Virus record (IMG/VR): IMGVR_UViG_3300023202_000163 | Span: 1-64,000 of that record | Length of the DNA: 64,000 nucleotides | DNA from: a virus | Reading direction: 5' to 3' (one strand) | In this document: one piece after another, positions 1 to 45,811 of the stretch | Layout: every line of letters starts with the position of its first letter | Numbering within the stretch: position 1 is the first letter of the stretch | Notes under the pieces: model-generated | What the model saw: only the letters and a program-made list of their open reading frames with translations | What the model was told of the DNA's origin: nothing | The model's database searches: none | Made by a program: the position numbers and the translations under genes

Positions 1-273
1 GGGGTTAACGGCCCCCTACCGTGAGGTAAGTGACGGCAACAGAGACGAGTCATAAAAATTAGGTTCTCCAGGAGCGAGGGGGGATTAAACAGCGGCAGAA
101 ACAGCGGCCTAATTTGTATGGGTGAAACGGGCGACAGCGCAGGTGCAGCAATCGGAAGCAGAGGGCAATGATATGTGCCAAGGAGTCCTCGGGTGCCGAG
201 CAAAGAACTTGTTGGTAACAGCAAGTCAAGATAAATGATTGTCTATAACAGAATCCCGCTTATAGCCCTTCTC
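1..273 (+). ncRNA. rnpB: RNase P RNA (5' part outside window)
   Basis: RNase P landmarks in the correct order: GGGGTTAACGGCCCC (P8), GTGA-capped P9, GCAACAGAGA, GGGTGAAACGG, GCAGCAA, GTAA-capped P18 (ACTTGTTG-GTAA-CAGCAAGT), AGATAAATGAT and ACAGAATCCCGCTTA (P4 3' strand). Confidence 0.9.
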
Positions 274-280
274 CATACAT

Positions 281-355
281 CCGGGTGTAGCTCAGAGGCA
301 GAGCGCGCGCTTTGGGAGCGTGAGGTCGGGATTTCGATATTCCCCACCCGGACCA
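281..355 (+). tRNA. tRNA-Pro(TGG)
   Basis: Acceptor CCGGGTG/CACCCGG, A73, CCA; anticodon arm CGCGC-TTTGGGA-GCGTG; T arm GGGAT-TTCGATA-TTCCC has a T-T mismatch at 53:61. Confidence 0.93.
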
Positions 356-442
356 TGATAGGGGTTCCAGAACAGAAATTCTGGACGTAAGTTGCCGCAA
401 GGTTAGCCCCTTATAGAAACAAACTGTAGATAAAGGATTTTT

Positions 443-991
443 ATGCATGTAAGCATACACGGACATTTTAGAAGTGGAACTCATTACTTGCGACATGTAG
501 TAAGTGCTAACTTTTCTGTTATAATGCGTAACGATAGGCATCACGCCTTACCGGGACGATTTTTGACAGACGGACGAAAAGCACTCTATATCCGTAGAGA
601 CTTTGAAGATGTGGCTAAATCTATATGGGCTATGAAGGAACGTTTCGGGGCGGGGGCAGAGACTTTTGAAGAGTTCAAGGATATTCCTTGGCGCGAGCAA
701 TTTCGTGAATTTGATCCTTCGTTGTTGGAATTGGGTTCTTACTATAAGCGCCACAAGGCAGCCGTTAAGACAGATCGTTCACTTAGTAAGGAATCTCTTT
801 CTCCGAGAGAGTATCATGCCATGCACGTAGCCTCGTGGGAGAGTTGCCAATACGATAATGTATTAATAGTAGACTATGAAGCTATGGTATCTAGTTTTGA
901 AGAGGAAATGCGTAAAATTGCGGCATTACTGGAGTCTAATATATCGGAGTTTAAGAATATTCCTCGAACTGGGGTATGGAAAGTAAATTAG
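443..991 (+). CDS. Sulfotransferase-domain protein
   Basis: 5'-PSB-like motif GHFRSGTHYL, 3'-PB-like YIRRDFEDVAKS, and VDYEAM...MRKIAALL as in PAPS-dependent sulfotransferases. Confidence 0.75.
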   Translation: MHVSIHGHFRSGTHYLRHVVSANFSVIMRNDRHHALPGRFLTDGRKALYIRRDFEDVAKSIWAMKERFGAGAETFEEFKDIPWREQFREFDPSLLELGSYYKRHKAAVKTDRSLSKESLSPREYHAMHVASWESCQYDNVLIVDYEAMVSSFEEEMRKIAALLESNISEFKNIPRTGVWKVN

Positions 992-992
992 C

Positions 993-1069
993 GGGCCCCT
1001 AGCTCAATAGGTTAGAGCGACGGTCTCTTAAACCGTAGGTTCTGGGTTCGATTCCCAGGGGGCTCACCA
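993..1069 (+). tRNA. tRNA-Lys(CTT)
   Basis: Acceptor GGGCCCC/GGGGCTC, ACCA end; anticodon arm ACGGT-CTCTTAA-ACCGT; TTCGA T loop. Confidence 0.96.
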
Positions 1070-1125
1070 CTAGTTTAGGATGTTTGTAGGAGTTAGAGTA
1101 TTATAAGATAAACTTTTAAGCATGT

Positions 1126-1201
1126 TGCTGGATAGCTCAATCGGTAGAGCACTGGTCTCTGAAACCAGGGGTTCTGGGTTCGAATCCCAGTCCGGCAACC
1201 A
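1126..1201 (+). tRNA. tRNA-Gln(CTG)
   Basis: Acceptor TGCTGGA/TCCGGCA (T1:A72), ACCA end; anticodon arm CTGGT-CTCTGAA-ACCAG. Confidence 0.95.
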
Positions 1202-1207
1202 TAATGA

Positions 1208-1281
1208 TTGGGCGTAGTGTAGGGGTAACACTGGTGCTTTGGGAGCATCCATCGGGAGTTCGAATCTCCCCGCCCGAACCA
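1208..1281 (+). tRNA. tRNA-Pro(TGG), second divergent copy
   Basis: Acceptor TTGGGCG/CGCCCGA, ACCA end; anticodon arm GGTGC-TTTGGGA-GCATC; T arm GGGAG-TTCGAAT-CTCCC. Confidence 0.9.
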
Positions 1282-1285
1282 GTTT

Positions 1286-1372
1286 GGACAGGTAGCAAAA
1301 TGGCTGAATGCGCCGGGCTTTTAACCCGGAGGAGAAATCCCGTTGTGGGTTCGAGTCCCACCCTGTTCACCA
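1286..1372 (+). tRNA. tRNA-Lys(TTT) with long variable arm
   Basis: Acceptor GGACAGG/CCTGTTC, ACCA end; anticodon arm CCGGG-CTTTTAA-CCCGG; variable arm GGA-GAAA-TCC; 3-bp D stem. Confidence 0.88.
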
Positions 1373-1379
1373 AATTTTA

Positions 1380-1469
1380 GGAGGAGTGGCAGATAGGAAT
1401 CGCGCACGTTTGCTAAACGTAGGCCGGGATTAAAATCCCGAGTGGGATCGTTACCCACCTCCTCCGCCA
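1380..1469 (+). tRNA. tRNA-Ser(GCT)
   Basis: Acceptor GGAGGAG/CTCCTCC, G73, CCA; anticodon loop TTGCTAA; long variable arm; T loop ATCGTTA. Confidence 0.92.
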
Positions 1470-1476
1470 TATACAC

Positions 1477-1562
1477 GGAAGGTACCGTACAGGGTACAAA
1501 CTGGTTTCGAACACCAGGGCACAGGTAAAACTGTGGGGGATCGTTACCTCTACCTTCCGCCA
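1477..1562 (+). tRNA. 8/4-type tRNA-Ser(CGA)
   Basis: 8-bp acceptor GGAAGGTA/TACCTTCC, G73, CCA; D arm GTAC-AGG-GTAC; anticodon arm CTGGT-TTCGAAC-ACCAG; long variable arm; 4-bp T stem GGGG-ATCGTTA-CCTC. Confidence 0.88.
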
Positions 1563-1575
1563 CGACAGGAGAAAT

Positions 1576-1661
1576 AGAGGGTACCGTGCAGGGCACAAAC
1601 TGGGTTTGAACCCCAGGGCACAGCGAGAGTTGTGGGGGATCGTTACCTCTACCCTCTGCCA
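1576..1661 (+). tRNA. 8/4-type tRNA-Ser(TGA)
   Basis: 8-bp acceptor AGAGGGTA/TACCCTCT, G73, CCA; D arm GTGC-AGG-GCAC; anticodon arm CTGGG-TTTGAAC-CCCAG; 4-bp T stem. Confidence 0.88.
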
Positions 1662-1667
1662 GTTTTT

Positions 1668-1744
1668 TGGGGAGTAGCTCAGTTGGTTAGAGCGGTTGAC
1701 TTTGAATCAACAGGTCCTGGGTTCGAGTCCCAGCTTCCCACCCA
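1668..1744 (+). tRNA. tRNA-Gln(TTG)
   Basis: Acceptor TGGGGAG/CTTCCCA, C73, CCA; anticodon arm GTTGA-CTTTGAA-TCAAC. Confidence 0.93.
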
Positions 1745-1751
1745 AAGTAAA

Positions 1752-1839
1752 GGAAGATTGCCGGAGAGGCCAAACGGGCTCGCTTGGAAAGCGATGCGGG
1801 GTAAAACCCACAGAGGTTCGAATCCTCTATCTTCCGCCA
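1752..1839 (+). tRNA. tRNA-Ser(GGA)
   Basis: Canonical 7/5 class II tRNA: GGAAGAT/ATCTTCC, G73, CCA; anticodon loop TTGGAAA. Confidence 0.96.
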
Positions 1840-1848
1840 CTTTACACG

Positions 1849-1933
1849 GGAAAGTACCGCGCAAGGCGCAAACGGGTTTCGAACATCCGGGGAGATTTAA
1901 AATCTCGGGGAGCGTTACCTCTACTTTCCGCCA
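1849..1933 (+). tRNA. 8/4-type tRNA-Ser(CGA), second copy
   Basis: 8-bp acceptor GGAAAGTA/TACTTTCC, G73, CCA; D arm GCGC-AAG-GCGC; anticodon arm CGGGT-TTCGAAC-ATCCG; T loop AGCGTTA. Confidence 0.85.
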
Positions 1934-1947
1934 TTTAGAAGCTAGAC

Positions 1948-1975
1948 TAAAGTTTGGTTGCGTACTAGCCGAATA
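1948..1975 (+). promoter_or_regulatory. sigma28/FliA-like promoter
   Basis: TAAAGTTT-N12-GCCGAATA against the consensus TAAAGTTT-N11-GCCGATAA; lies upstream of an AGGAG RBS and the ATG at 1999. Confidence 0.5.
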
Positions 1976-1998
1976 GACATAAATGAGAAGGAGCAAAT

Positions 1999-2088
1999 AT
2001 GTTAATCCGAGTCGCTAGCGATATTCATCCAGAGTTTGGAATGGATGATTACAATTTTATATTTCCGCCACAGGATTCAATAATCTAA
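1999..2088 (+). pseudogene. Truncated duplicate of the metallophosphoesterase 5' end (29 aa)
   Basis: MLIRVASDIHPEFGMDDYNFIFPP vs MLIRLASDIHLEFGMDDYNFILPP at 2432; ends at TAA 2086-2088. Confidence 0.85.
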
Positions 2089-2099
2089 AAAGAGGTTTT

Positions 2100-2279
2100 A
2101 TGTTGTTAATACTACGTGCTCTTCTGGCTCTTCTTACCCTATGTGGTTTCTGGATCGGAGGAGCCCAACTTGGAATACTGTTACTCGGTCCCGACAACGA
2201 TCTTATTATTCTATTTGGAAGTATAGGAATGTTCGTTGGTATAGCGGCGGCCCTTGAGATTCTCACGCCTAATGTCTAG
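2100..2279 (+). CDS. Small membrane protein (59 aa, two hydrophobic segments)
   Basis: GAGG RBS; MLLILRALLALLTLCGFWIGGAQLGILLLGPDNDLIILFGSIGMFVGIAAALEILTPNV; below the ORF-track cutoff; stop codon overlaps tRNA-Trp. Confidence 0.6.
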   Translation: MLLILRALLALLTLCGFWIGGAQLGILLLGPDNDLIILFGSIGMFVGIAAALEILTPNV

Positions 2280-2355
2280 GGGTATAGCTCAGTCTGGCCA
2301 GAGCAGCGGTCTCCAAAACCGCGTGTCGTGGGTTCGAATCCTACTGCCCCTGCCA
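2278..2355 (+). tRNA. tRNA-Trp(CCA)
   Basis: Acceptor AGGGGTA/TGCCCCT, GCCA end; anticodon arm GCGGT-CTCCAAA-ACCGC. Confidence 0.97.
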
Positions 2356-2431
2356 GATAATAATAACTTAAGAGATAGAGCAAGTAACGAACCTTCTAAA
2401 TTCCCTACCCGGGCCATATATAGGTAAAAAC

Positions 2432-3208
2432 ATGTTAATTAGACTCGCGAGCGATATTCATCTAGAGTTTGGGATGGATGACTATAATTTTATACTTCCG
2501 CCTCTTCCGGAAGATCCTGAAACAGTACTAATTCTGGCTGGAGATATACATACAGGAACTTCAGCCACTGACGAATTTTTACCTTTCATGTCGTCTCGTT
2601 TTGCTCATGTTTTTTACGTTCTAGGAAATCATGAGTTTTACGGTTTTGATTTTAATACTGTAGCTGAAGATATTCGTTATAAAATAAATGATATTGCAAA
2701 CGTTACTCTACTGGACGATGACTATTTTATCCATAATGGAGTTCGTTTTGTTGGTTCCACTTTGTGGACAGATGTTAAAAAAAGAGATCCTCTGTCTATA
2801 ATGTTGGTTAGAAAAAGTATGAACGATTATAGAGCCATCAAAAAGGCAGGTTCTAGGTTGTCTGTGTATGATACAATTGATAAACATGAAGAGTCTGTAA
2901 AGTATTTGAAAAACACTTTGAATACTCCTTTTGATGGTCCTACTGTTGTTGTAACGCACCATGGACCAAGTTATCAGAGTGCTCATTATATGTACCGTGG
3001 AAATAAAGCGGAACAGCTAAATGTAGCTTACTATTCTGATCTAGAATACTTGATGCACGAGTATAATATCTCTTATTGGTTTCACGGACACACACATTCG
3101 ACCATGAGTTACGAAATAAACGGGTGCAAAGTTCGGATGAATCCTCGTGGATACGGAGAAGATCCTGAAAATCCTGACTACGACCCCATTTTTAGGGTAG
3201 AGGTTTAG
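2432..3208 (+). CDS. Calcineurin-like metallophosphoesterase
   Basis: Motifs SDIH, AGDI, GNHE, THH and HGHTH. Confidence 0.92.
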   Translation: MLIRLASDIHLEFGMDDYNFILPPLPEDPETVLILAGDIHTGTSATDEFLPFMSSRFAHVFYVLGNHEFYGFDFNTVAEDIRYKINDIANVTLLDDDYFIHNGVRFVGSTLWTDVKKRDPLSIMLVRKSMNDYRAIKKAGSRLSVYDTIDKHEESVKYLKNTLNTPFDGPTVVVTHHGPSYQSAHYMYRGNKAEQLNVAYYSDLEYLMHEYNISYWFHGHTHSTMSYEINGCKVRMNPRGYGEDPENPDYDPIFRVEV

Positions 3209-3212
3209 CTAT

Positions 3213-3620
3213 ATGTTTAAAGTTAAGAATCAATACGGTATTGAAGAAGAGGTTGAAGATTTTTGGGAGCTTTTTGAAGTATTGTTCCCTGAAAGCTGTC
3301 AAAAAGGTCTATTGAGAGATAGGCCATATGATGGACAGAATCATACGAATCACGGAAAAAGAGGTAAAACAGAAATAAAGGACATAACTTTCAGAGACCT
3401 GCACGATTGCTTTATCAGAGCCTGCTGCTTAGCTTCTGGGGAAGATAAGTGGTATGAAGAGGCCCCTAAAGGGGAAAAGGCTATGCTGGCTGAGAATGAT
3501 CTGTATAAACTCCCGTGGGAAAATATGGATATTGTTGCGGTTGCTCAGAATCTAAGTTGCGAAGTTGAAAAGATTATGGGAATTTATCCTAATATTGATG
3601 ATAACGAGGAATCGGATTAG
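3213..3620 (+). CDS. Hypothetical protein
   Basis: 135-aa ORF packed tightly between the phosphoesterase and rtcB. Confidence 0.7.
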   Translation: MFKVKNQYGIEEEVEDFWELFEVLFPESCQKGLLRDRPYDGQNHTNHGKRGKTEIKDITFRDLHDCFIRACCLASGEDKWYEEAPKGEKAMLAENDLYKLPWENMDIVAVAQNLSCEVEKIMGIYPNIDDNEESD

Positions 3621-4853
3621 ATGAGTGATTATGATGTATATAAAAGCAGTAATGTCCCTATTAAGGCCTGGACAAGAGGTGTACCTGTAGAGGGTGCGGC
3701 TGTTGAACAGCTTAAAAATATAGCTTCATTGCCTTTTATACACAAACACGTAGCAGCCCTGCCGGACCTTCACCTAGGTAAAGGTGCAACTGTTGGGTCT
3801 GTTATACCTACTAAAGGAGCCATTATTCCTGCTGCTGTTGGGGTGGATTTATCGTGCGGCATGGTGGCTGTTCGCACAAGTATGTCTTCCAAAGACCTTC
3901 CGGATAGTCTTAGATCCTGGCGAACTGCGATCGAAGAGGCTGTACCTCACGGGGCGGTTAAGGGGGCATCTCACGATAAGGGCGGTTTCTTTTCAGAAGA
4001 TCTTCCAGAAATAAATCGTGAAGTGTGGGCACATAAATTAGAAGGTAAATATAAAGAAATTAACGAAAAGCATGGCAAGATTTTTCACAAAAAAGCACCT
4101 TTCCAGCTTGGAACTTTGGGGAGTGGTAATCACTTTATTGAGATCTGCTTAGATGAGAATGATCGTGTCTGGCTTATGCTACATTCTGGAAGTAGGGGTC
4201 CTGGTAACCTTATAGGACAATACTTTATAGAGCTAGCAAAAGAGGATATGAGAACCTATTTTATAAATTTACCAGATAAAGACCTTGCTTACTTCCCTGA
4301 GGGAACAAAGTATTTTGAAGACTATATTGAAGCCATAGATTGGGCCGGAGAGTTTGCCAAATATAATAGGGAACTTATGGTTTCTAGTGTATTTTCTGCT
4401 TTAAAGAAAGTAGAAGGAATACCTAAAGAAAAACTTATGGCCCAAGATATTGCAATAAATTGTCACCATAATTTTGTACAGAGAGAAAATCACTTTAAAG
4501 AAAATGTATGGGTTACAAGAAAAGGAGCTGTTTGTGCTAGAAAAGGTATGCTTGGCATAATCCCGGGCTCCATGGGGGCAAAGTCCTTCATTGTAGAAGG
4601 AAAAGGAAATCCTGAGAGCTTTGATTCCTGTAGCCACGGAGCAGGGCGCACTATGAGCAGGTCATTAGCAAAACAAGTTTTTACTTTAGACGATCATGTT
4701 AAAGCCACATCTGGAGTGGAGTGTCGAAAAGACGAAAGTGTTTTGGATGAGACTCCTGGAGCCTATAAGGACATAGATAAAGTAATGGCAGCACAATCTT
4801 CTTTGGTTGATGTAAAACATGTACTAAAACAGATTTTGTGTGTTAAGGGTTGA
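3621..4853 (+). CDS. rtcB: RtcB RNA ligase
   Basis: PDLHLGKG, VGVDLSCG, GTLGSGNHF, LHSGSRG, HHNFV, PGSMG, SHGAGR, DETPGAYKDI. Confidence 0.97.
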   Translation: MSDYDVYKSSNVPIKAWTRGVPVEGAAVEQLKNIASLPFIHKHVAALPDLHLGKGATVGSVIPTKGAIIPAAVGVDLSCGMVAVRTSMSSKDLPDSLRSWRTAIEEAVPHGAVKGASHDKGGFFSEDLPEINREVWAHKLEGKYKEINEKHGKIFHKKAPFQLGTLGSGNHFIEICLDENDRVWLMLHSGSRGPGNLIGQYFIELAKEDMRTYFINLPDKDLAYFPEGTKYFEDYIEAIDWAGEFAKYNRELMVSSVFSALKKVEGIPKEKLMAQDIAINCHHNFVQRENHFKENVWVTRKGAVCARKGMLGIIPGSMGAKSFIVEGKGNPESFDSCSHGAGRTMSRSLAKQVFTLDDHVKATSGVECRKDESVLDETPGAYKDIDKVMAAQSSLVDVKHVLKQILCVKG

Positions 4854-4872
4854 TAATAAATTGTTTTAATTA

Positions 4873-4914
4873 ATAACCCAAACATTGGGTTATATAACCT
4901 AATGTTTGGGTTAT
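4873..4914. repeat. 42-bp nested palindrome
   Basis: ATAACCCAAACATTGGGTTAT|ATAACCTAATGTTTGGGTTAT; one mismatch overall and each half is itself an 8-5-8 inverted repeat. Confidence 0.9.
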
Positions 4915-4993
4915 ACATGACATAAGTGGAACAACTACACTAAAGAAGCTACGTTGTAGAAAATCTGCAACATAATTTTATGGAGATAAATAA

Positions 4994-5398
4994 ATGAAGG
5001 TCAAGTTTTTTGTTTTGTTTGGTTTGTTTTTTATTTTAACTTTCCCAGCATTTGCTGTGGACCCCGAGTGTGTAGATGTTACGCAAGCTGGTACTATTGA
5101 TTTTTCTGACGGTAACGGAGCTATCTGTACTTCAGCTACAGATGGAAATGGCGACCCCCTTTCAGAATCAAAAGTACTAACCTGTACGGTTACGTTTGTA
5201 GACAATGCTGGAAATGTTATTGGGACTGAAGAAGTTGTTGGTGGCCCTGGGGAATTTTTTACATTTAATACCCCTCGCGATGGTGTTGGCACTGCTTCTG
5301 CTGTTTGTGTAATGGATGAGCTTACCTCAGAAACAGCTTCGATAACAGCTATATTCCCAGCGGATGTAGCCCCAGCCCAGCCGGTTATTTTGCCTTAG
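4994..5398 (+). CDS. Secreted Cys-containing protein
   Basis: Signal peptide MKVKFF...PAFA; GGAG RBS; four Cys in the mature part. Confidence 0.75.
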   Translation: MKVKFFVLFGLFFILTFPAFAVDPECVDVTQAGTIDFSDGNGAICTSATDGNGDPLSESKVLTCTVTFVDNAGNVIGTEEVVGGPGEFFTFNTPRDGVGTASAVCVMDELTSETASITAIFPADVAPAQPVILP

Positions 5399-5405
5399 GG
5401 TCTAT

Positions 5406-5744
5406 TTGATGAGAAATTTAATAATATTTCTGGTTTTCCTAGTAGGGTGCTCCGGAGGGTCTGTTCCTCCGGAGTCTCCTGCTCCTATAAGCTTAAATTT
5501 ATATCAACCTGTTTCTGAATGCCCGGCAGAGATAGAGTATCGTTGGATTAGTGCAAGCGGGGAGCAAAGAAGCTTTTTTTCCGGAGAGGGTGGGTTTTGT
5601 GCCTTACTTTCGGAAAAAGTTACAGGAAGCCCTGTAGAGGCTCGTTGTGTACTGCGAGACAGTGGTGGAACTGTCTTACAAAGTGGGCGGTGGGTGGCCG
5701 CTAGGCAAACTAATTTAGAGGAGTTTAGGGATTTATGCCCCTAA
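5406..5744 (+). CDS. Putative lipoprotein
   Basis: Hydrophobic leader with lipobox LVGC. Confidence 0.7.
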
Positions 5745-5751
5745 ACGTAAT

Positions 5752-6144
5752 ATGACTATAGTTTTTACAAACGGCTGTTTTGATTTGCTGCATGTAGGCC
5801 ATGTGCGCTATTTAGACATGGCCAAGAAATTGGGAGATTATTTGATTGTGGGTTTAAATTCTGACGCGAGCTTTTTACGCTGTAAAAAGAGAGCGCCTAT
5901 AAATCCAGATAGGTTTAGAGCAGAAATGCTATCCGCTCTGAAGAGTGTAGATGAAGTAATAATATTTGAAGAAGATACTCCTTACAATTTGATAAAAAAG
6001 CTAACCCCAAATATATTGGTAAAGGGTGGGGATTACAAGGTTAATGATATTGTAGGTAACGAGCTGGTCGATTTTACCGTAGTCATAAGTAGCGGAATTA
6101 GTCTTCACACGTCTGATATTTTAAATAAAATTAAAGCAACATAG
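5752..6144 (+). CDS. HldE/RfaE domain II-like (heptose-1-phosphate adenylyltransferase), stand-alone
   Basis: [30 protein letters not shown]-like RAPIN, FEEDTP, LVKGGDY. Confidence 0.85.
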
Positions 6145-6154
6145 GAATATATAA

Positions 6155-7903
6155 ATGTTTAAAAATATACTAAAACTAACCTTCTTTACAATTGTACTCA
6201 TGTCATGTTCTGGCTTTAAGTGCAACCCTGCTGAAGAATGGAATCAGGTTTTTAATAGAAACTCTTTTGTGGCGGATTCTCGGGGTTGGGTTTCTGGAGA
6301 TGCTGCTCGGTTTACGAAACTCCCTAACGGTAAATTTTTATGGGCATTCGGAGACTCCAAGGTCACTAAAATAGACGTATCGTCTAATCAAGTTATAATA
6401 CAAAACCCCCGTAGTAGGGATGGTGTTTTTGGCACTATTTTAGCTATACAGGAAAGTTCACCTATTAATTCCAGTAATATTAGATTTTTTGCGAGATTTC
6501 TTGAAACTAACGCTGTACGAGATATTACTTCCGGCTTACCTTCTCTATTTTCCCAAGATGGCGGTTCCTCCAGTTTTTTTAACGAAGCTATACTAAATAT
6601 TCCAGATATTACTCCAAATACTTCTCCGGTATTCTGGCCGCATGGATTAGCTTGCATAGATTGTGAACATAACCCACAAGTAGTACTAATGCTAAAAGAG
6701 ACTGTTTTCTGCAACCCCCAGAATAGTATATATGATTGTCGGCCCTTTTGCGTACTGTCCAATATAGACGGAAGTACAGACTCTTCAACTACCTGCACCA
6801 ATGGATTAGCTTCTTTAAGAAATGTAATTGTAAAAATATTAAATCCAAATGATGATATAAAAAATTGGCAATTTCAATCGGTGATTGTTGAACCTGTTGC
6901 TACGACCGCCTGGGGCGTTGATTTTATGGAACGGTATGGTTGGGTATATGTGTACGGAACCCAGGAGAGGCCGGGAGGGGGAGTATTCGATATGATAGTT
7001 TCCCGAACTCTTAAAGAAAACGTAATGAACCCGAATGAGTGGGAGGTCCTGACGGAAAATGGGTGGGTCAAAAAATTAGAGAACCCGACACCAAAAATAG
7101 TAGCTACCGATGTATCTACAATGTTTAGTGTGGACTCTATCGTAAGTAATAATAGAGAAAATTTCTTACTGGTACACGACAGGCCTCTTAAAACCCATTT
7201 AACTTTTGTAAGACCAAGTAATAGTCAAATAAGTTGGGAAGACACAAACGAAAAAACTCCTAGAGTTGATAAATTTTCAGCGGATCTAACATTACAAAGT
7301 TCTGTGGAGTCTGCTATAGCTGCTGGAAACTGTTCACCATTTTTAGATATTATAACAGCAAAAACCTGTGTCCCAAGTTACCATGCATCTGTCTATAAAG
7401 AATTATCAGTTCCCCAAGGCGATCAGGATATTTTATTTCCAAGTGTAAAAACCCTTCTTTTTGGTTTTATAGTACCCAGAGGACCGGCTGATGGAAGTAA
7501 TAGTGCCGATTACGATAAACCAAGATTTGGTACTATTGATATAGCTAAAGTTAAACCTTGGTGTATCATCTCACATGAAAAATGTTGGAGAGGCGTAAAT
7601 CACGTATTCCCAGCCCTAGAGTTAACTGATAGTGAGATAACGTCAATAAACTTCAATGTAGTAGACAGCGATTCTTTTGTACTGGAATCGTTTTCTGATC
7701 TCTCTACATATAATTTAAGGGGCTTTGTTGATTTTGCAGAAGAAGTTGATATAGTTTGTGAATTTGATGAAAACACAGAAAGTAGTTTTTGTTTCGTAAA
7801 TAACTTAGAAGATAATAATGTATTTACACTACAACTTAGCTCAGTAGCACCTTTAACGATTATCACATTTAGAGCTAGTTATGACGGCAACGCGGGGATT
7901 TAA
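6155..7903 (+). CDS. Exported lipoprotein with probable beta-propeller (DUF4185/DUF5005-like) domain
   Basis: Lipobox LMSC; SGDAA...LPNGKFLWAFGDS, FWP and GWVYVYGT motifs recalled from that family. Confidence 0.55.
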   Translation: MFKNILKLTFFTIVLMSCSGFKCNPAEEWNQVFNRNSFVADSRGWVSGDAARFTKLPNGKFLWAFGDSKVTKIDVSSNQVIIQNPRSRDGVFGTILAIQESSPINSSNIRFFARFLETNAVRDITSGLPSLFSQDGGSSSFFNEAILNIPDITPNTSPVFWPHGLACIDCEHNPQVVLMLKETVFCNPQNSIYDCRPFCVLSNIDGSTDSSTTCTNGLASLRNVIVKILNPNDDIKNWQFQSVIVEPVATTAWGVDFMERYGWVYVYGTQERPGGGVFDMIVSRTLKENVMNPNEWEVLTENGWVKKLENPTPKIVATDVSTMFSVDSIVSNNRENFLLVHDRPLKTHLTFVRPSNSQISWEDTNEKTPRVDKFSADLTLQSSVESAIAAGNCSPFLDIITAKTCVPSYHASVYKELSVPQGDQDILFPSVKTLLFGFIVPRGPADGSNSADYDKPRFGTIDIAKVKPWCIISHEKCWRGVNHVFPALELTDSEITSINFNVVDSDSFVLESFSDLSTYNLRGFVDFAEEVDIVCEFDENTESSFCFVNNLEDNNVFTLQLSSVAPLTIITFRASYDGNAGI

Positions 7904-8481
7904 ATTATAGAGTTTATCTCTATTAAACAGGAATGAGTTCTTCGCATCCAGCCTTTTAGGAAAACTGACATTTTAGGTTTCCTTACAACTAGATTTGCTA
8001 ATAAATCAACTCTTCTAAGAACTATATTTTGTGCTATTTTTAGATTATCTTTTTGTTCACGCACTTTACTCAAAGTAGCTGGTCCTATGAGGCCGTCTGC
8101 TTTTGCCCCCACTTCTCTTTGTAGCGCCCTGGAGGACACACTCAAACCAGAATTTACTGCGTAGTCCATAACTGCTAGGGCTATGGTAGCTGGCAACTGA
8201 TCCCCCTTGATTTTATCCCAGTACTCCTTTTTATAGATTTTTTTGGCCCCTTCTTCTGTTAAATTTCTTATATCTACATCAGGATGGGATCTTTGAGCAA
8301 TACCAAAATTAGTAAGACCTCCAGGATCCGCTTCGTGATCTACTAGACCTCCTTCCCACTGTAAAACAAATTTCATAACTTTGTCAAACTTTTCCATTTC
8401 GATGTCCTTTATTTTTTCAATTAAGATATCTTCTTTTTTTCGCAAAAATATAGACAAGACTTTGTTCAGAAAAAGTCGCAT
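7900..8481 (-). CDS. GH108 family lysozyme (endolysin) with peptidoglycan-binding domain
   Basis: EGGLVDHEADPGGLTNFGI, DYAVNSG, DGLIGPATL, FLKGWMRR; the true start may be the internal MEKFD. Confidence 0.93.
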   Translation of the reverse strand: MRLFLNKVLSIFLRKKEDILIEKIKDIEMEKFDKVMKFVLQWEGGLVDHEADPGGLTNFGIAQRSHPDVDIRNLTEEGAKKIYKKEYWDKIKGDQLPATIALAVMDYAVNSGLSVSSRALQREVGAKADGLIGPATLSKVREQKDNLKIAQNIVLRRVDLLANLVVRKPKMSVFLKGWMRRTHSCLIEINSII

Positions 8482-8482
8482 C

Positions 8483-11400
8483 TTATCTAGGTTCTTGTGT
8501 GTATTCTATGGTAAGACCAGAACGGCCCACCATATCCATAACTTGTTGCCACAAATCAACAGAATTACCCTTTTCAGATCCTTTATCAAGGGCCTCTAAT
8601 TTGGGCCCGATGCTCAAAAGCCAATCTGGAGGACCGTCCACTACAACCGCCCCGTAATCCTCAAAGCGTTGGCTTCTGAGCGCTTGTATGGCCGGGGAAA
8701 CTTCTGTGAAAAGTGGGGACATCATTACTATTTTTTCTCCTGGAGCCCCATTAGGATTTACAGCTATAGCTAATTTTTGATTAGGTATTAATTGTTGGTT
8801 TTGTTTCTGTAAAATACCGTCATCACCCTTTATAGGATCTGGCGCTACTTTTCTTTCATTTCTGTGCTTAGTGTTAGGCCCTACGGCGGGTTTTCCGGAT
8901 TGACCCCAATCTGGGTTGTGGTCATGGGGAAATATAGTACCGATTCTTCTATAGTCTTCCATAGTTCGAGAAGCGCTAGCTTTATAGATATTTTCTTTAG
9001 GTGGTTTTATAGACATGAATCCTGGTTTTTTACCTGTCCGGTCCATATCCCAGTGTTCTCTGCTTTTATCATCACCATTAGGACTCCCCTTTCCTGTTTT
9101 GTTCCTTGTCATAGGCACTTCTGGATTAGGGTCTTGACCTCCTCTGCCAAAATCTGGAGAACCTTCTATAGATTCAAGTTCTGGGGCTATTTTTGGGTTC
9201 TTGGCTTTATTTGGTATGGAGTCCAAATTATGTCTTGGTTTTTTACTGTAAAATTTAGGATCTTTTCTTAAATTTTCTACAGCAGTGTCTTTATCTTCTT
9301 TGAATTCATCAAGAGCCAATTTTAACTCATGCTGGTCTACGTGAGAATCCAAATTTGATTTAAACATATTTCTTCCCGGTTCTGGGTAATTAACTACAGG
9401 CAAAAATCCAGTAGGTTTAGGCTCCCCTTGGGGTCTTACCATAGGTGCCCTGTCTAGGCCCCCACCTCCTGGATATCTTGTAAATTTTCCAGGTGAGCTT
9501 GACTCTCTGGATTCTTCAGCTTTCATGGGGGATAGATGAGGATCTTTCCCATGAACATCTAATACTTGGGGTATAGGTAGCTCCACTGCTAAAAAGCCTG
9601 CACCCTTATCCGCAGGGTAGTGTGTAGCAGGTAATTGGTCTGCTCCGGGAAATTCGTCCCGATGTTCTGGGCCAATATCTGCCGAAACAACAGGCTCATC
9701 CCACGTAAATAAATCCACAGAAGATGTACTTTCTTTTTTCAAACCATGCAAATCATAGTCTCCAGGGATACCGTCTTCTGGCGTAACCGATTGCCATTGG
9801 GGGTGATCTTTGGGTATAGGGGGAGGCCCAGAATGTTCCTGCTCCGGAGGTACAAATGGAAGAGATCCACTAAATCCATCTCTGCTACCTCTTCCCCGAG
9901 ATGGTCGCTCAGACCACTTTGTTCCCGAATTAAACCACCTAGGTTGAAATTTTAAAGATCTTTCGTGCTGTCTTTGAGGTTCGGCCTCGACTTTAGCATG
10001 GTGAGTAAGCGGACGTGCTGGTCCGAGACCTGGATGGTGTGCTTTTTCTCCTTCTGGGTCTTTCCATGCCCAGTCAAAGTGGCTTCTCCACAGGATATGG
10101 TCACTTTGATCTTCGTCAGGGTGTGTACGAAATTCACTGGGACCCTGACTACTCTTTGTGATACCCTTTTTTCGGGCGTCTCGATAGTTTCCGTCATAGC
10201 AGGTCTCTCCGGGTCTAATATGGCTATCACCACATTTATTTTTATCTTCGTTTGTCATATCTTTTCTACTCTCTAGAAAACGAGTTGCTAATTCTATAAT
10301 TTTATCCGCATCTTTTATCCCTGTTTCGTCTTCAATAGCACGAGTTAACTCTAAAAATTTACCCATCTGCGGCCCAGGTTTCATACCGCGCGCAATCAAA
10401 TCTTTTCCTGTAACAGCATCCGTAAGCTTGCTTTGTCCAGGTTCTATAAAATTTGTTACATACTCTTTATATTCTTCTAGGAATTTATCAGCTCTACTAG
10501 TATCTCGCCTTACAGCTTTTTCTGTAGTTCTTCCCAAAGTATCTGCTTTTGAGACGGCAGCCAATAGCTCCGGACTTACTTTTGCAGCATCTAAAACCCT
10601 ATTTAATCTTCTATAGCCTTTTCGGCCCGCTCTCTCTGGCATAAGTTGGGGGCGTAAGTGCGTGGCTACTAATGTGGCAACTTGTTTCGTTAGGTCATTT
10701 GGCGCTTTCATTCTTTTCATAAAAGTTACAGTGGGCTCATAACCGCCTTCTTCGTGCCCGAGTGCTCTAATCTTTCCGCCTTCTTCTACTTGTGTATTTT
10801 CCGGTTTTCCAAAATCATGAGATAATGCACCGAACATTAGCGGCATGTCAAATTCAGGATCTCCTGTTCTTTGTTTTGCCGCTTCATCAATTACCATTAA
10901 AGTGTGAACGTACACGTCACCTTCAGGATGGTGGTCAGGGTCTTGCGGAACCCCCTGTAGTTTTTCTATTTCGGGAAAATATCTTAAAAGATTAGACTGT
11001 CTAAGAACTTCTAAACCTTTTGACGGTTTTTTACCCTTTAAAAGCATTTTAGAAAATTCAGGAAATATTCTTTCTCCTGGTAATTGTTCAAGTGGTTGGG
11101 CAGCTATTAATTCTAAAGTTTTAGGCTCTACCTCAAAATCGAAACGGGCAGCAAATTGGGCTGCTCGCAAGGCGCGCAAAGGGTCTTCTCCGAAAGTATT
11201 TGGATCCGCTGCTCTTAGGATTCCGTTTCTTAAATCAGACATTCCTCCTAACGGGTCTATTATTTCCCCAGTCAGGGGGTCTTTACTCATAGCATTTATG
11301 GTTAAATCTCTTCTTCTTGCCGCCTCTTCTAGTGTCATGTTAGGGTCGGGTACTACATCAAAACCTTTATGTCCCTCTCCTTTTTTCTTTTCCCTCCTAG

Positions 11401-11662
11401 GGAGAGCTATATCCCAATCCAACTCATTTATATGTAAAACTCCAAATTGCTGTCCTACTTCCTTAACATTTCCGAAATTAGTTAAAATTTCTTTTAATTT
11501 ATCCGGCTGAAGACCAAAAACTTCAAAATCAAAATCTTTTTGCGGTAGGCCTAGTAATTCATCGCGTACTATTCCACCGACTAGATACACCTTTCCCCCG
11601 TATTTTTCTACCATTCTGGCAAAGGCTTGAACCATTGCATTATTTGCAATTGTTAAATTCAT
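8483..11662 (-). CDS. cca: CCA-adding enzyme with HD phosphatase domain, fused to a ~600-aa low-complexity C-terminal extension
   Basis: VGGIVRD..DFD, flexible loop ALPRREKKKGEGHKGF, RRDLTINA, EDPLR, HPEGDVYVHT, HDFGK, GHE and ADTLGR in aa 1-465; the remainder is Pro/Gly/charged-rich. Confidence 0.92.
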   Translation of the reverse strand: MNLTIANNAMVQAFARMVEKYGGKVYLVGGIVRDELLGLPQKDFDFEVFGLQPDKLKEILTNFGNVKEVGQQFGVLHINELDWDIALPRREKKKGEGHKGFDVVPDPNMTLEEAARRRDLTINAMSKDPLTGEIIDPLGGMSDLRNGILRAADPNTFGEDPLRALRAAQFAARFDFEVEPKTLELIAAQPLEQLPGERIFPEFSKMLLKGKKPSKGLEVLRQSNLLRYFPEIEKLQGVPQDPDHHPEGDVYVHTLMVIDEAAKQRTGDPEFDMPLMFGALSHDFGKPENTQVEEGGKIRALGHEEGGYEPTVTFMKRMKAPNDLTKQVATLVATHLRPQLMPERAGRKGYRRLNRVLDAAKVSPELLAAVSKADTLGRTTEKAVRRDTSRADKFLEEYKEYVTNFIEPGQSKLTDAVTGKDLIARGMKPGPQMGKFLELTRAIEDETGIKDADKIIELATRFLESRKDMTNEDKNKCGDSHIRPGETCYDGNYRDARKKGITKSSQGPSEFRTHPDEDQSDHILWRSHFDWAWKDPEGEKAHHPGLGPARPLTHHAKVEAEPQRQHERSLKFQPRWFNSGTKWSERPSRGRGSRDGFSGSLPFVPPEQEHSGPPPIPKDHPQWQSVTPEDGIPGDYDLHGLKKESTSSVDLFTWDEPVVSADIGPEHRDEFPGADQLPATHYPADKGAGFLAVELPIPQVLDVHGKDPHLSPMKAEESRESSSPGKFTRYPGGGGLDRAPMVRPQGEPKPTGFLPVVNYPEPGRNMFKSNLDSHVDQHELKLALDEFKEDKDTAVENLRKDPKFYSKKPRHNLDSIPNKAKNPKIAPELESIEGSPDFGRGGQDPNPEVPMTRNKTGKGSPNGDDKSREHWDMDRTGKKPGFMSIKPPKENIYKASASRTMEDYRRIGTIFPHDHNPDWGQSGKPAVGPNTKHRNERKVAPDPIKGDDGILQKQNQQLIPNQKLAIAVNPNGAPGEKIVMMSPLFTEVSPAIQALRSQRFEDYGAVVVDGPPDWLLSIGPKLEALDKGSEKGNSVDLWQQVMDMVGRSGLTIEYTQEPR

Positions 11663-17748: not shown

Positions 17749-18870
17749 TTAAGGATTGTTACGAATTAAATCAGATAGCAGGTCTGGATGAAGCACCACA
17801 GCTACAGGGTTTGTATCGTTTATGGAATTTAGAATTCTAACAACACCAAACTGGAAAGTCCCGTATCGGATATTCGTTAGGCGATCTATTGAGGCTGCAT
17901 CAAGCTCCACCAGCTCGCTACCTGTGGGGGAAACCGAAGCACTGCCCAGAGTGGCTCCGGTAGCTCCCTCTACGGCGAAGCCTAGCACAGTATTTTCTTC
18001 GGTAACGTCTATTGTACCTCCAAGATCTTGGGAGCGTAGTACAACCTGAGATCCTTTTTGGGCTAAGGCCTGTCTTTTAGCTTTGTCTTGGATTATTTGA
18101 GAGTTACCTACAAGCAGGGCCCTGTCCGTTGACAACACACCGCCTACAAATTCTAATGTAGCTCCACCTAACCCGTCTACGTTAACTCCGAGATCCTCGT
18201 CTGTAGCAAAATCAAAACTTTCTCCTGTTACCCCCACTAGCATAGCTTCAGATCTTACATCAATGAGGTCTGGTAGATTAAGATTTACACCGTGTACCTC
18301 TCCTGTAGCACCTCCTCCTCCGATTCTATCATTGTTCAGTGCTCGAACATCAAAATTCTGAGTCTCTGCTACAATTTCTTGAGTAATATCGCGAACAGCA
18401 AAAAGACTTCCATCTGCCCTCAGTTTCGCGGCTCGTCCTACTAGTCCTCGACCTGCATTTTTCGTCTGTTGTGAATTGTTTACCCCAGCAACAAAGTCGA
18501 TAAGATCGAAAGGTTCTTTGGCGAAACCGTTTACATCTATATCTGTATACTTTCTACTAGGGGGAGTGGAGAATGCAGCTTCAGCCCCTGCGTAGTTTGC
18601 AATTAAGCTCGAATATCTTGCGTAACTTATTAATTTAGCTACTGGATTGGAAGTTGTTATACCGATGTTAGATACCTTAGTGGAATTACCTCCACCTGTT
18701 CTTCTTCTTTTTATGTCTACGCCAGCACCATTAGCTAGAGAAGCGAAGGGTTCTCTATTTTCTTGGATATCTTTGAGAATTTTTGGCAAACGAGATTTTC
18801 CGTTTGCGTAGCCTTCGTAAATTTCTTCATAAGTAAGGTCTGTTCTAGCGTTTAAAGTCTTGAATCCCAT
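17749..18870 (-). CDS. Putative structural protein
   Basis: 373 aa, Gly/Ala/Val-rich, located in the neck operon. Confidence 0.6.
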   Translation of the reverse strand: MGFKTLNARTDLTYEEIYEGYANGKSRLPKILKDIQENREPFASLANGAGVDIKRRRTGGGNSTKVSNIGITTSNPVAKLISYARYSSLIANYAGAEAAFSTPPSRKYTDIDVNGFAKEPFDLIDFVAGVNNSQQTKNAGRGLVGRAAKLRADGSLFAVRDITQEIVAETQNFDVRALNNDRIGGGGATGEVHGVNLNLPDLIDVRSEAMLVGVTGESFDFATDEDLGVNVDGLGGATLEFVGGVLSTDRALLVGNSQIIQDKAKRQALAQKGSQVVLRSQDLGGTIDVTEENTVLGFAVEGATGATLGSASVSPTGSELVELDAASIDRLTNIRYGTFQFGVVRILNSINDTNPVAVVLHPDLLSDLIRNNP

Positions 18871-44674: not shown

Positions 44675-45811
44675 ATGGCTAAGAATCCTTATTTAGCACG
44701 TCCGGCTTATGTCGGTCGTAATGGGGACGCCCTAACCGACGGCGGCGCTCGGGCTGGTCGGCGTAATCCGCGTTCCGGCACCATGATTCAGTCTTCTACT
44801 GAGTCACTAGTTGCAGGTAACGGTGAATTAAATGCCGGCTCTAAGCGTGAGCTTATGCAGGCAATTGCGTCTCTACAGAACATGGTACAGGCTGGCGATG
44901 TACGCAGAGCCACCCCACAGGAGCAGTACGGTGATATCGTACAGGCTCGTAGAGAACTTGTAGAAGCAGCTTACGCTGATAAAAACGGCGAGGGTTGGCA
45001 AGTTCTAGGTGAAGTAATCGGTGAAGAAATCTGGGAAACCTTAGGACGTGAAGGTTTCGCTCGGAAGACCCTTCTTATCAAGCCTCTGGGCAAAGGTGAG
45101 ACTGGTCGTCTGCGCGTTCGACGTAAGGATGTTATCTCGTTCTTCGTAACGAGTGACCCTAACGTGATTGCGTCTCAGGTTCGCCAGTTCTACATCTACC
45201 CACCCGAGTTCTATCTGATTGCGCACATCACGCTTGAGGACAAAGAAATCGAGCAGGCTTCCGGAGACCTTCTGGACGACAAGTACCAGGACGGACTTGA
45301 GCAGATCATGGTTCGTGAGGACAACGTATGGCGTAATCTAATTAACGCTGCTGCGGGTGCTTCTAACGACTTGTTCCTGTTCAACACCTTTACACCGACT
45401 GTGTTCTCTACCATGAGAACGCAGATTGCTCGGTGGGGTATTCCGGTAACCGGTGCAATCATTGCATTCGATCTCTGGGACGACATCATTGCTGACACCG
45501 AGTTCAGCACTTGGTTCGACCCGGTATCCAAGCACGAGCTTGTTCTTGAAGGCTCTCTTGGTAACATCCTTGGTGTTAACCTCATCACGGACGCTTTCCG
45601 ACACGATACCTTGCAGGTTCTACAGCCCGGCGAAGTTTACTTCGTAGGTGCTCCGCAGACCCTTGGTGGTATCACTCAGCGGAAAGAGCTAGCTACCGAG
45701 TCCATCAACAAGTACAATCAGGGTAAACCTGAGCGTGGTTGGTTCATGGAAACCATCGAGGGCATGTCAATTGTGAACTCAAGAGCTGTCACAAGGGGCA
45801 ATAGAGTCTAA
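44675..45811 (+). CDS. Major capsid protein
   Basis: Strong RBS GAGGAG, strongest codon bias in the window, followed by a terminator; NGELNA, PPEF, GDLLD, IMVRED.W, DPVSKHEL..G.LG and RGW motifs recalled from PaBG/Yoloswag/JA11-like capsids. Confidence 0.88.
   Translation: MAKNPYLARPAYVGRNGDALTDGGARAGRRNPRSGTMIQSSTESLVAGNGELNAGSKRELMQAIASLQNMVQAGDVRRATPQEQYGDIVQARRELVEAAYADKNGEGWQVLGEVIGEEIWETLGREGFARKTLLIKPLGKGETGRLRVRRKDVISFFVTSDPNVIASQVRQFYIYPPEFYLIAHITLEDKEIEQASGDLLDDKYQDGLEQIMVREDNVWRNLINAAAGASNDLFLFNTFTPTVFSTMRTQIARWGIPVTGAIIAFDLWDDIIADTEFSTWFDPVSKHELVLEGSLGNILGVNLITDAFRHDTLQVLQPGEVYFVGAPQTLGGITQRKELATESINKYNQGKPERGWFMETIEGMSIVNSRAVTRGNRV

Follow-up and report, generated by a model that had tools for sequence, protein, structure and literature searches.

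An RNase P RNA gene beside a tRNA array, RtcB and a CCA-adding enzyme in an uncultivated phage, probably of jumbo size

The first 11.7 kb of the window, the 64,000-nucleotide stretch of IMG/VR record IMGVR_UViG_3300023202_000163 analysed here, carry a class-A RNase P RNA, 12 tRNA genes, a metallophosphoesterase, the RNA ligase RtcB and a CCA-adding enzyme with an HD domain; every item of this inventory, drawn up in a preliminary description of the DNA, is confirmed. The kit is of a known kind and the ribozyme is its unusual item. Terminase, capsid (major head) and tail-fibre genes indicate that the contig, about 35% of a roughly 220-kb genome, derives from a genuine phage. The identity and intactness of the parts, their synteny and their distribution across phages are established here. 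The explanation that we favour, and regard as reasonably probable, is that the source is an uncultivated jumbo phage of about 220 kb, that the region is the downstream part of its tRNA island, and that this island does two separable jobs, tRNA production and tRNA maintenance, which are adjacent by shared descent and do not form one obligatory module. About 40% of the 11.7 kb is filled by genes with no evident link to tRNA, namely a sulfotransferase (443-991), an HldE-domain-II-like nucleotidyltransferase (5752-6144), a DUF4185-like ORF (6155-7903), a GH108 endolysin (7900-8481) and three unknown ORFs, indicating a neighbourhood, not a tight operon. No Rnl or PNK gene is present in the window; a PF09414 match was found solely in one relative, G023, elsewhere in its genome.

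The RNase P RNA occupies positions 1-278 of the plus strand and is matched by the covariance search with RF00010 that the preliminary description had proposed (87 bits, E 1e-25). Its 5' end is cut off: the alignment spans model positions 74-367, and the 5' 73 model positions are absent because the contig starts there, which corresponds to about 65 missing nucleotides, as judged from full-length homologues. These are the complete RNAs of 277-333 nt of the relatives G023, G028 and G073, about 80% identical to the window copy; that of G073 measures 278 nt. The complete homologues in the clade reach 148-155 bits, and the score of the window copy, lower than the gathering score of 100 bits, is probably explained by its truncation. 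The RF00010 core consists of the P4 catalytic core and the joining regions ACAGAA...GCUUA and AGAUnAAUG; the 3' strand of P4 and J18/2 are both found in the window copy, which also keeps P8, P9, P15 with its GGU loop, P18 and the 3' strand of P1. P13 and P14 are lacking, and P12 has an insert of about 45 nt. The 5' half of the window ribozyme is predicted from the relatives, where the 5' strand of P4, GAGGAAAGUCGGGAC, is found together with a compensating change in P4. In P15, CUCGGGUGCC aligns to CGGGUA of the model; the GGU of this internal loop pairs with the 3' CCA of the substrate. The helices are maintained by compensatory changes among the relatives, with double changes that preserve pairing in 11 of the 51 predicted pairs. 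No match to rnpA (PF00825) was found in the five genomes searched.

RNase P RNA counts as a housekeeping ribozyme of cells and organelles, and a literature search found no published description of a phage copy. The P4 core, J18/2, the P15 GGU loop and P18 are shared with the bacterial class-A RNA (E. coli M1 RNA, rnpB; RF00010), and the chromosomal RNAs of Burkholderiales/Betaproteobacteria have in common with the phage RNA both the junction devoid of P13/P14, GGGUGAAA-CGGGC, and the J11/12 sequence ACAGAGACGAG. Conversely, the phage RNA is encoded by a virus, it is embedded among tRNA genes whereas rnpB stands alone, its P3 is much reduced, its P12 insert is lineage-specific, and it has no partner rnpA gene. 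A ribozyme gene with tRNA genes on both sides is also known from yeast mitochondria, where RPM1 is transcribed between tRNA-fMet and tRNA-Pro; thanks to these flanking genes, the enzymes of tRNA processing, RNase P itself included, can generate the ends of the ribozyme. However, RPM1 is organellar and specifies a highly reduced, AT-rich RNA with a nuclear-encoded protein partner, while the phage case is a virus.

All 12 tRNA genes lie on the plus strand and encode CCA after the discriminator base, as the preliminary description had stated; ARAGORN identifies 11 of them with default settings and the 12th at a relaxed threshold. The array begins with tRNA-Pro(UGG) (281-355), 2 nt past the 3' end of the ribozyme, and continues with tRNA-Lys(CUU) (993-1069), tRNA-Gln(CUG) (1126-1201) and a second tRNA-Pro(UGG) (1208-1281). 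At 1286-1372 there is an 87-nt tRNA with a Lys anticodon, UUU, on a class II body with a long variable arm and A73, which is conserved in G073 and G028 with compensatory changes. It is followed by a tRNA-Ser(GCU) with the unusual T-loop AUCGUUA (1380-1469; 30.5 bits), a non-canonical tRNA-Ser(CGA) with the same odd T-loop (1477-1562), which the Rfam tRNA model does not call at its gathering score, and its paralogue, a non-canonical tRNA-Ser(UGA) (1576-1661). Next are tRNA-Gln(UUG) (1668-1744), a canonical tRNA-Ser(GGA) (1752-1839), the 12th tRNA (1849-1933) and tRNA-Trp(CCA) (2278-2355). The 12th, a Ser(CGA)-like paralogue recognised by relaxed ARAGORN and by eye, has a G at T-loop position 55 and is possibly degenerate. 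Short spacers within the array measure 4-13 nt. The nearly complete relative G073 has an island of at least 33 tRNAs that covers most amino acids, and a tmRNA is also found in the islands of G023 and of another record, G012.

RtcB, the 3'-phosphate/5'-OH RNA ligase, is encoded on the plus strand at 3621-4853 and is intact: PF01139 is covered over positions 1-426 of 426 (415 bits against a cut-off of 27, E 5e-124), and the motifs VGVDLSCG, GSGNHF, LHSGSRG, HHN and CSHGAGR align with T. thermophilus RtcB (2epg), providing the metal-binding Asp, Cys and His residues and the guanylylated His (SxHGAGR). The protein is 71-75% identical among the clade relatives. Its logic is that of Pnkp/Rnl1 of phage T4 against the PrrC anticodon nuclease, where the phage mends tRNA that a suicide nuclease of the host has cut; the chemistry is different, since RtcB joins 3'-P and 5'-OH ends directly, without kinase or phosphatase.

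The calcineurin-like metallophosphoesterase (2432-3208, plus strand; PF00149, E 5e-16; phrog_1649, E 2e-58) is syntenic in the clade and has the general motifs of this superfamily, with all metal-binding positions invariant and the active site intact. Its AF2 model (pLDDT 95) has PptH (6unc) as best fold match (TM 0.75), followed by Rv0805 and GpdQ; Pnkp is absent from the top fold matches, and sequence comparison gave no match in the PDB. Thus the enzyme is modelled as a fold of the PptH/Rv0805 phosphodiesterase type, and its role on RNA is putative: the proposal that it heals RNA ends finds no detectable kinship to characterised RNA 2',3'-cyclic phosphodiesterases or 3'-phosphatases, either by sequence against the PDB or by fold search.

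The predicted class II CCA-adding enzyme (8483-11662, minus strand; 1059 aa; PF01743, E 1e-21; PF12627, E 8e-11) is encoded on the strand opposite to the tRNA, phosphoesterase and RtcB genes, where it is grouped with lysis genes and genes of structural appearance. Head, body and HD phosphohydrolase occupy residues 1 to about 460 and are followed by a tail of about 600 aa, mostly of low complexity with a conserved block of about 120 aa at the end; this tail is always fused to CCA heads and is found nowhere else (17 protein clusters), and the protein is conserved over its full length in the clade. The motifs GGIVRD, DFDFE, RRRDLT and EDPLR of the PolyA_pol head and RNA-binding body are present, and the HD domain is intact (HDIG model, E 5e-4), its H...HD...H...H...D residues (YVHT, SHDFGKP, GHEE, THLRP, KADTLGR) being invariant in four orthologues. 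The best NCBIfam model is that of the multifunctional E. coli Cca (NF008137), with 238 bits over residues 24-381 against an equivalog cut-off of 451 bits; PcnB models reach 116 bits. E. coli Cca shares the motifs GGxVRD, DxD, RRD and [ED]DxxR as well as that of the HD phosphohydrolase, but the phage protein exceeds it 2.5-fold in length and has a tail limited to this phage clade. Since all 12 tRNAs encode CCA, the enzyme is dispensable for making them, in agreement with the preliminary description, and 3'-end repair is its likeliest role.

The three related jumbo phages (G073, G028 and G023; 184-267 kb) have the same order as the window, RNase P RNA, tRNAs, phosphoesterase, RtcB, nucleotidyltransferase, endolysin and CCA enzyme, with protein identities of 47-75%, which indicates that the cluster was inherited and is not accidental; in all three the RNase P RNA is internal. 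The expected co-occurrence of the components therefore stands as synteny among close relatives, whereas outside the clade the parts separate. RF00010 matches 21 further IMG/VR records, 16 above the gathering score and three with terminal repeats. Same-strand tRNA genes are found within 1.5 kb of the RNase P RNA in 19 of the 21, many at a distance of 0-10 nt, while RtcB is present in 4 and a CCA enzyme in 5; conversely, just one of 17 other phage records with RtcB contains RNase P RNA. tRNAs lie within 10 kb at 11 of these 17 RtcB loci, whereas neither the phosphoesterase nor the CCA gene is found within that distance at any of them. The same phosphoesterase family occurs 2-4 kb upstream of an RtcB in three further phage lineages (L229, L266 and L276). 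RNase P RNA also adjoins very large tRNA arrays in phages without any repair gene, and nearly all tRNAs adjacent to ribozymes that retain the GGU loop encode CCA. These counts indicate that the ribozyme goes with tRNA production and not with repair.

Jumbo phages have been described that combine many tRNAs with an RtcB-type ligase, a CCA-adding enzyme and, occasionally, phosphatases of the calcineurin-like or HD type, and these sets have been read as counter-measures to host tRNA attack (Iyer, Anantharaman, Krishnan, Burroughs and Aravind 2021, Viruses 13:63; PMC7824862), so the counter-defence idea for such sets is already published. That survey contains no occurrence of RNase P, whereas here the array includes a ribozyme gene and a conserved tail of about 600 aa extends the CCA enzyme.

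That the RNase P segment is no working phage gene, being either host DNA misassembled at a contig end or a decaying fragment of a captured rnpB, would fit its incomplete state at the extreme edge of the contig and its score under the Rfam gathering value. This account is, however, extremely improbable and already largely refuted: complete homologues occupy the same position deep inside the three related contigs, compensatory changes preserve the helices, terminal repeats are present in three RF00010-positive records, G012 is rated 100% complete, and truncation would account for the low score. The preliminary description had joined all five components in one coordinated counter-defence pathway against host systems that cleave tRNAs or block their 3' ends, with RNase P assigned to the 5' end, RtcB to internal breaks, and the phosphoesterase and the HD-CCA enzyme to the 3' end. 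The intact RtcB, the likely 3'-end repair by the HD-CCA enzyme and the order kept in three relatives speak for it, as do the phosphoesterase genes upstream of RtcB in other lineages and the presence of tRNA-Lys(UUU), which defence nucleases often target (PMC13056530), with an unusual class II body conserved in relatives. Nevertheless, the integrated pathway is distinctly unlikely, because the parts separate outside the clade, five or six unrelated genes interrupt the region, and the phosphoesterase resembles PptH, Rv0805 and GpdQ more than RNA-repair phosphatases. RtcB, moreover, requires the 3'-phosphate that a phosphoesterase would take away. The 5'-end repair arm finds no support, since RNase P RNA tracks tRNA arrays and not repair genes; RNase P matures precursor 5' leaders, and we know of no repair by it of damaged 5' ends of mature tRNAs.

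The opposite view is one of pure supply, in which the island matches phage codon usage and sustains translation after host transcription shut-off, and RtcB and the CCA enzyme serve routine RNA upkeep unrelated to host immunity. An island covering most amino acids, as in G073, is what supply predicts and not what the replacement of a few targeted tRNAs would need; RNase P RNA beside very large arrays lacking repair genes and the tmRNAs in two islands point the same way. Even so, this view is doubtful: to our knowledge RtcB has no role in bacterial tRNA biogenesis, supply has no need of a CCA enzyme where CCA is encoded, codon supply alone hardly explains the odd bodies of tRNA-Lys and tRNA-Ser, and anti-defence roles of phage tRNAs and RNA-repair enzymes are documented (PMC7824862; PMC11555353; PMC13056530).

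In the two-job island that we prefer, production would start from a same-strand tRNA run with the class-A RNase P RNA in its middle, ribozyme and tRNAs being most likely transcribed together; a promoter and terminator scan performed no better than chance, so that co-transcription is inferred. The 3' end of the ribozyme would be freed by an RNase P cut at the 5' end of the tRNA-Pro that lies 2 nt downstream. As no phage rnpA was found, the RNA would bind the RnpA protein of the host, whose compatibility is assumed, and the complex would remove the 5' leaders and short spacers of the array; the P15 GGU loop would suit substrates already bearing CCA, as all tRNAs here do. For maintenance, RtcB would reseal tRNAs cut to 2',3'-cyclic-phosphate/5'-OH ends and the HD-CCA enzyme would clean and rebuild damaged 3' ends, a possible link to host tRNA-cutting defences; the metallophosphoesterase may aid end-healing or may hydrolyse something else entirely.

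A bolder and rather improbable extension is a tRNA life cycle largely independent of the host, in which the phage would make its own ribozyme in fixed proportion to its own tRNAs, the class II tRNA-Lys(UUU) and the odd tRNA-Ser set would evade nucleases, the CCA tail would serve to deliver or position RtcB and the HD-CCA enzyme, and translation would persist after the host has destroyed its tRNAs and RNase P RNA or ceased to produce them. If this were true, the RNase P RNAs of phages would constitute a class of viral ribozyme genes that had so far escaped recognition and that act in infection.

The separation of the parts in other lineages is a warning that gene proximity in one genome is not a pathway. 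RtcB, the tailed HD-CCA enzyme and the uncharacterised phosphoesterase of this clade form a natural set to be confronted with tRNA-cutting defences such as PrrC, PARIS, retron effectors and Schlafens. The recurrence of RNase P RNA in the tRNA arrays of large phages means that some viruses carry a catalyst of tRNA maturation along with the tRNAs, and the system allows asking what holds back tRNA processing in infected cells and whether the islands of phage tRNAs serve for supply, for anti-defence or for both.

The RNase P RNA proposed in the preliminary description is recognized by the Rfam class A covariance model (RF00010) at positions 1-278 of the window on the plus strand, with 87 bits and an E value of 1e-25 over model positions 74-367. 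The match is flagged as 5'-incomplete, position 1 being the start of the contig itself; in three related jumbo phages that share the gene order of the window, G023, G028 and G073 (210, 184 and 267 kb, here called the clade), an RNA about 80% identical to the window copy is found far from contig ends, that of G073 occupying C1:20380-20657, and comparison with these indicates that about 65 nt, comprising P1-P3 and the 5' strand of P4, are absent from the window copy. Since the same RNA is internal in the relatives, contamination by host DNA at the contig end is ruled out. Moreover, 11 of 51 predicted pairs, analysed with the window included, retain pairing through two-sided changes (P8, P9, P15/16, P18), and the RNA is thus considered to be under structural selection. 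The source record (78,116 bp in IMG/VR, CheckV completeness about 35%, the first 64 kb in the window) is that of a genuine tailed phage, as observed from a large terminase of 1610 aa laden with inteins, with endonuclease-like inserts within it (26151-30983), a major head protein (44675-45811) and tail fibre genes. No close phage relative was found in GenBank by blastn using the first 8 kb as query, and a sequence scan for promoters and terminators performed no better than on shuffled sequence.

The ribozyme is real and recurrent in phages. The window RNA and that of the first relative supplied two short motifs with which IMG/VR was scanned, and RF00010 was then run over the entire records; an RNase P RNA was thereby detected in 21 further virus records, 16 of them above the gathering score, with lengths of 236-408 nt, about 17 distinct sequences and terminal repeats in three records. 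Same-strand tRNA genes lie within 1.5 kb of the ribozyme in 19 of the 21, many neighbours being only 0-10 nt away; in the window, 2 nt separate its 3' end from the start of tRNA-Pro. The smallest phage RNAs, all on the minus strand of their extracted loci (L097:1501-1736, L100:1501-1747 and L098:1501-1752), are 236-252 nt long and also miss most of P15-P17; to our knowledge, no bacterial RNase P RNA as small has been described. In L098, none of the 21 tRNAs neighbouring the ribozyme encodes CCA. A blastn search of GenBank phages with four phage RNase P RNAs returned no phage, the only matches being misfiled bacterial contigs.

Loss of P13/P14 could be taken for a phage-specific minimisation; this is ruled out by the finding that the exact junction is common to Burkholderiales-type chromosomal RNAs. 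Indeed, chromosomes in Burkholderiales/Betaproteobacteria metagenome-assembled genomes carry RNase P RNAs with the P13/P14-less junction and a J11/12 sequence identical to that of the phage RNAs (L107:998-1315; L124:3573-3902; L129:2047-2380). These sequence similarities suggest an origin of the phage genes from an RNA of Burkholderiales/Betaproteobacteria type, and a betaproteobacterial host. A scan of bacterial genomes with a 16-mer gave matches mostly by chance. The gene for the protein partner, rnpA (PF00825), was found neither in the genome to which the window belongs nor in four relatives; the partner is presumably the RnpA of the host.

ARAGORN identified 11 tRNAs at default settings and a twelfth, a Ser(CGA)-like paralogue at 1849-1933, at a relaxed threshold. 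All 12 are on the plus strand. In each, the discriminator base is followed by CCA, which the preliminary description had stated to be encoded in all tRNAs; the set corresponds to Pro, Lys, Gln, Ser and Trp. In G073, an array of at least 33 same-strand tRNAs with a central ribozyme extends over about 24 kb. The window set is thus the downstream portion of a near-complete set and gives no ground for claiming enrichment in nuclease targets. A tmRNA is found 5 kb upstream in G023 and adjoining the ribozyme in another virus record, G012; no gene for Pth was found in the clade genomes, and an Rnl-type ligase was found only in G023, elsewhere in the genome. A sulfotransferase gene (182 aa, 443-991), without counterpart in the three relatives, lies within the array between tRNA-Pro and tRNA-Lys.

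Some of these tRNAs are unusual. The tRNA at 1286-1372, whose anticodon (UUU) is that of Lys, has a class II-type body with a long variable arm and A73; it is kept in three phages (L101:3005-3092; in the G028 locus, L102:17571-17658 and 18174-18260 (-), a CUU version being present too), its variable, acceptor and anticodon stems showing compensatory changes, and it might escape tRNA-Lys-specific nucleases. Four Ser tRNAs (1380-1469, 1477-1562, 1576-1661 and 1849-1933) have the T-loop AUCGUUA, with A54/U58 and not T54/A58, and non-standard D-arms; the last copy has G55. Two of the four were missed by the Rfam tRNA model at all thresholds tried, and another required the relaxed ARAGORN threshold. 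Ser tRNAs of this odd type are also found in G073 and G028, and canonical ones in G023. Co-evolution of the ribozyme with the odd 8/4-type tRNA-Ser or with the class II tRNA-Lys is unlikely, because the G023 ribozyme accompanies canonical Ser and Lys tRNAs. A second copy of the N-terminus of the phosphoesterase, whose gene starts at 2432, is encoded by a 29-codon ORF (1999-2088), and a 59-aa hydrophobic ORF and tRNA-Trp separate the two; this arrangement (1999-2355) resembles a scar left by an inserted cassette.

The protein components named in the preliminary description were also confirmed. The metallophosphoesterase (2432-3208) matches PF00149 and phrog_1649, and none of its metal-binding motifs varies among 26 aligned family members. 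A PDB sequence search gave no match; the AlphaFold model (pLDDT 95) is nearest in fold to Mycobacterium tuberculosis PptH, followed by Rv0805 and GpdQ, with no RNA-repair phosphatase among the closest folds. Single-protein scans of IMG/VR with the phosphoesterase or the CCA enzyme gave no match; an alignment-based scan revealed that the phosphoesterase family is abundant in phages (at least 577 loci). Among 78 non-clade loci, RtcB lies 2-4 kb downstream in three, and four or more tRNAs within 10 kb in 15; association of this enzyme with RtcB or tRNA loci is a hint and not a rule. A distinct 2H-superfamily (LigT/Acb1-like) phosphoesterase, which could be an anti-CBASS enzyme or an RNA 2',3'-cyclic phosphodiesterase, is encoded amid late or structural genes of virus record G000 (G000:C1:66814-67386; L306:2814-3386).

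RtcB (3621-4853) matches PF01139 over its full length (E 5e-124) and retains the Cys/His metal ligands and the SxHGAGR histidine. The preceding 135-aa ORF (3213-3620), considered as an archease or other RtcB cofactor, has no family match and is not kept in relatives. G023 RtcB (L103, reverse complement of 7693-9924) contains an in-frame insert of about 1 kb in a 745-aa open frame, probably an intein.

In the CCA enzyme (8483-11662, minus strand, 1059 aa), the head and RNA-binding domains are those of a class II enzyme, and among NCBIfam models it is matched best by the multifunctional CCA/repair protein of E. coli type. No change in the H...HD...H...H...D residues is seen across four orthologues. 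Its tail of about 600 aa (8483-10282, minus strand) is conserved in full length in the clade, with the short motifs CGDSHIRPGExCYDG, PGGGGLDRAPM and HRNER and a C-terminal block of about 120 aa; no known domain was found in it by Pfam or the protein atlas. A delivery module shared with other enzymes is not supported, since each of the 17 homologous protein clusters carries a fused CCA head. In the G028 enzyme (L102, 1505 aa), a Fic motif (HPFEDGNGR) lies in an insert within the tail, and a Lys/Glu-rich stretch is present as well.

All the listed components are thus present, and the idea that they form one counter-defence toolkit is partly supported. The clade members keep one gene order, with 47-75% protein identity: RNase P is followed by tRNAs, phosphoesterase, RtcB and nucleotidyltransferase, and then, on the minus strand, by endolysin, the long CCA enzyme and orf587. 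Other genes share the 11.7 kb: a sulfotransferase, an HldE-domain-II-like nucleotidyltransferase, a DUF4185-like gene, a GH108 endolysin and three unknown ORFs; the sulfotransferase, unknown ORFs and DUF4185-like gene are not kept in the clade. Outside the clade, however, the components separate, which does not bear out a single pathway: RtcB is found in 4 and a PolyA_pol head in 5 of the 21 RNase P-bearing records, and neither in the complete or near-complete genomes G019, G035 and G045. Conversely, among 17 other records gathered via RtcB (37-56% identity), only one has an RNase P RNA, 11 have tRNAs near RtcB, and none has a phosphoesterase, CCA or nucleotidyltransferase gene within 10 kb of it.

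RNase P acts in maturation, and the phage copies of its RNA track tRNA arrays, not repair genes. A ribozyme co-transcribed with its tRNA substrates would scale with them, and RNase P cuts alone would nearly complete the processing of the array, since the spacers are 4-13 nt long and CCA is encoded. As the preliminary description noted, the CCA enzyme is not needed for synthesis of tRNAs that all encode CCA; RtcB and the HD-CCA enzyme would both be dispensable for making them, and are best explained as repairing nuclease damage. This reading agrees with the published view of RNA repair in jumbo phages (PMC7824862) and is consistent with the known defences that target tRNAs (PMC13056530; PMC11555353). 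It is also plausible that the whole island serves counter-defence rather than supply. Repair kits of this kind are already known; what is unusual here is the embedded ribozyme, which is apparently unpublished, literature searches having found no publication on a phage-encoded RNase P RNA, with a poor coverage of subscription journals that leaves this absence unproven. The data fit an island of two juxtaposed functions, in which the ribozyme would serve the production of tRNAs and RtcB with the HD-CCA enzyme their maintenance.
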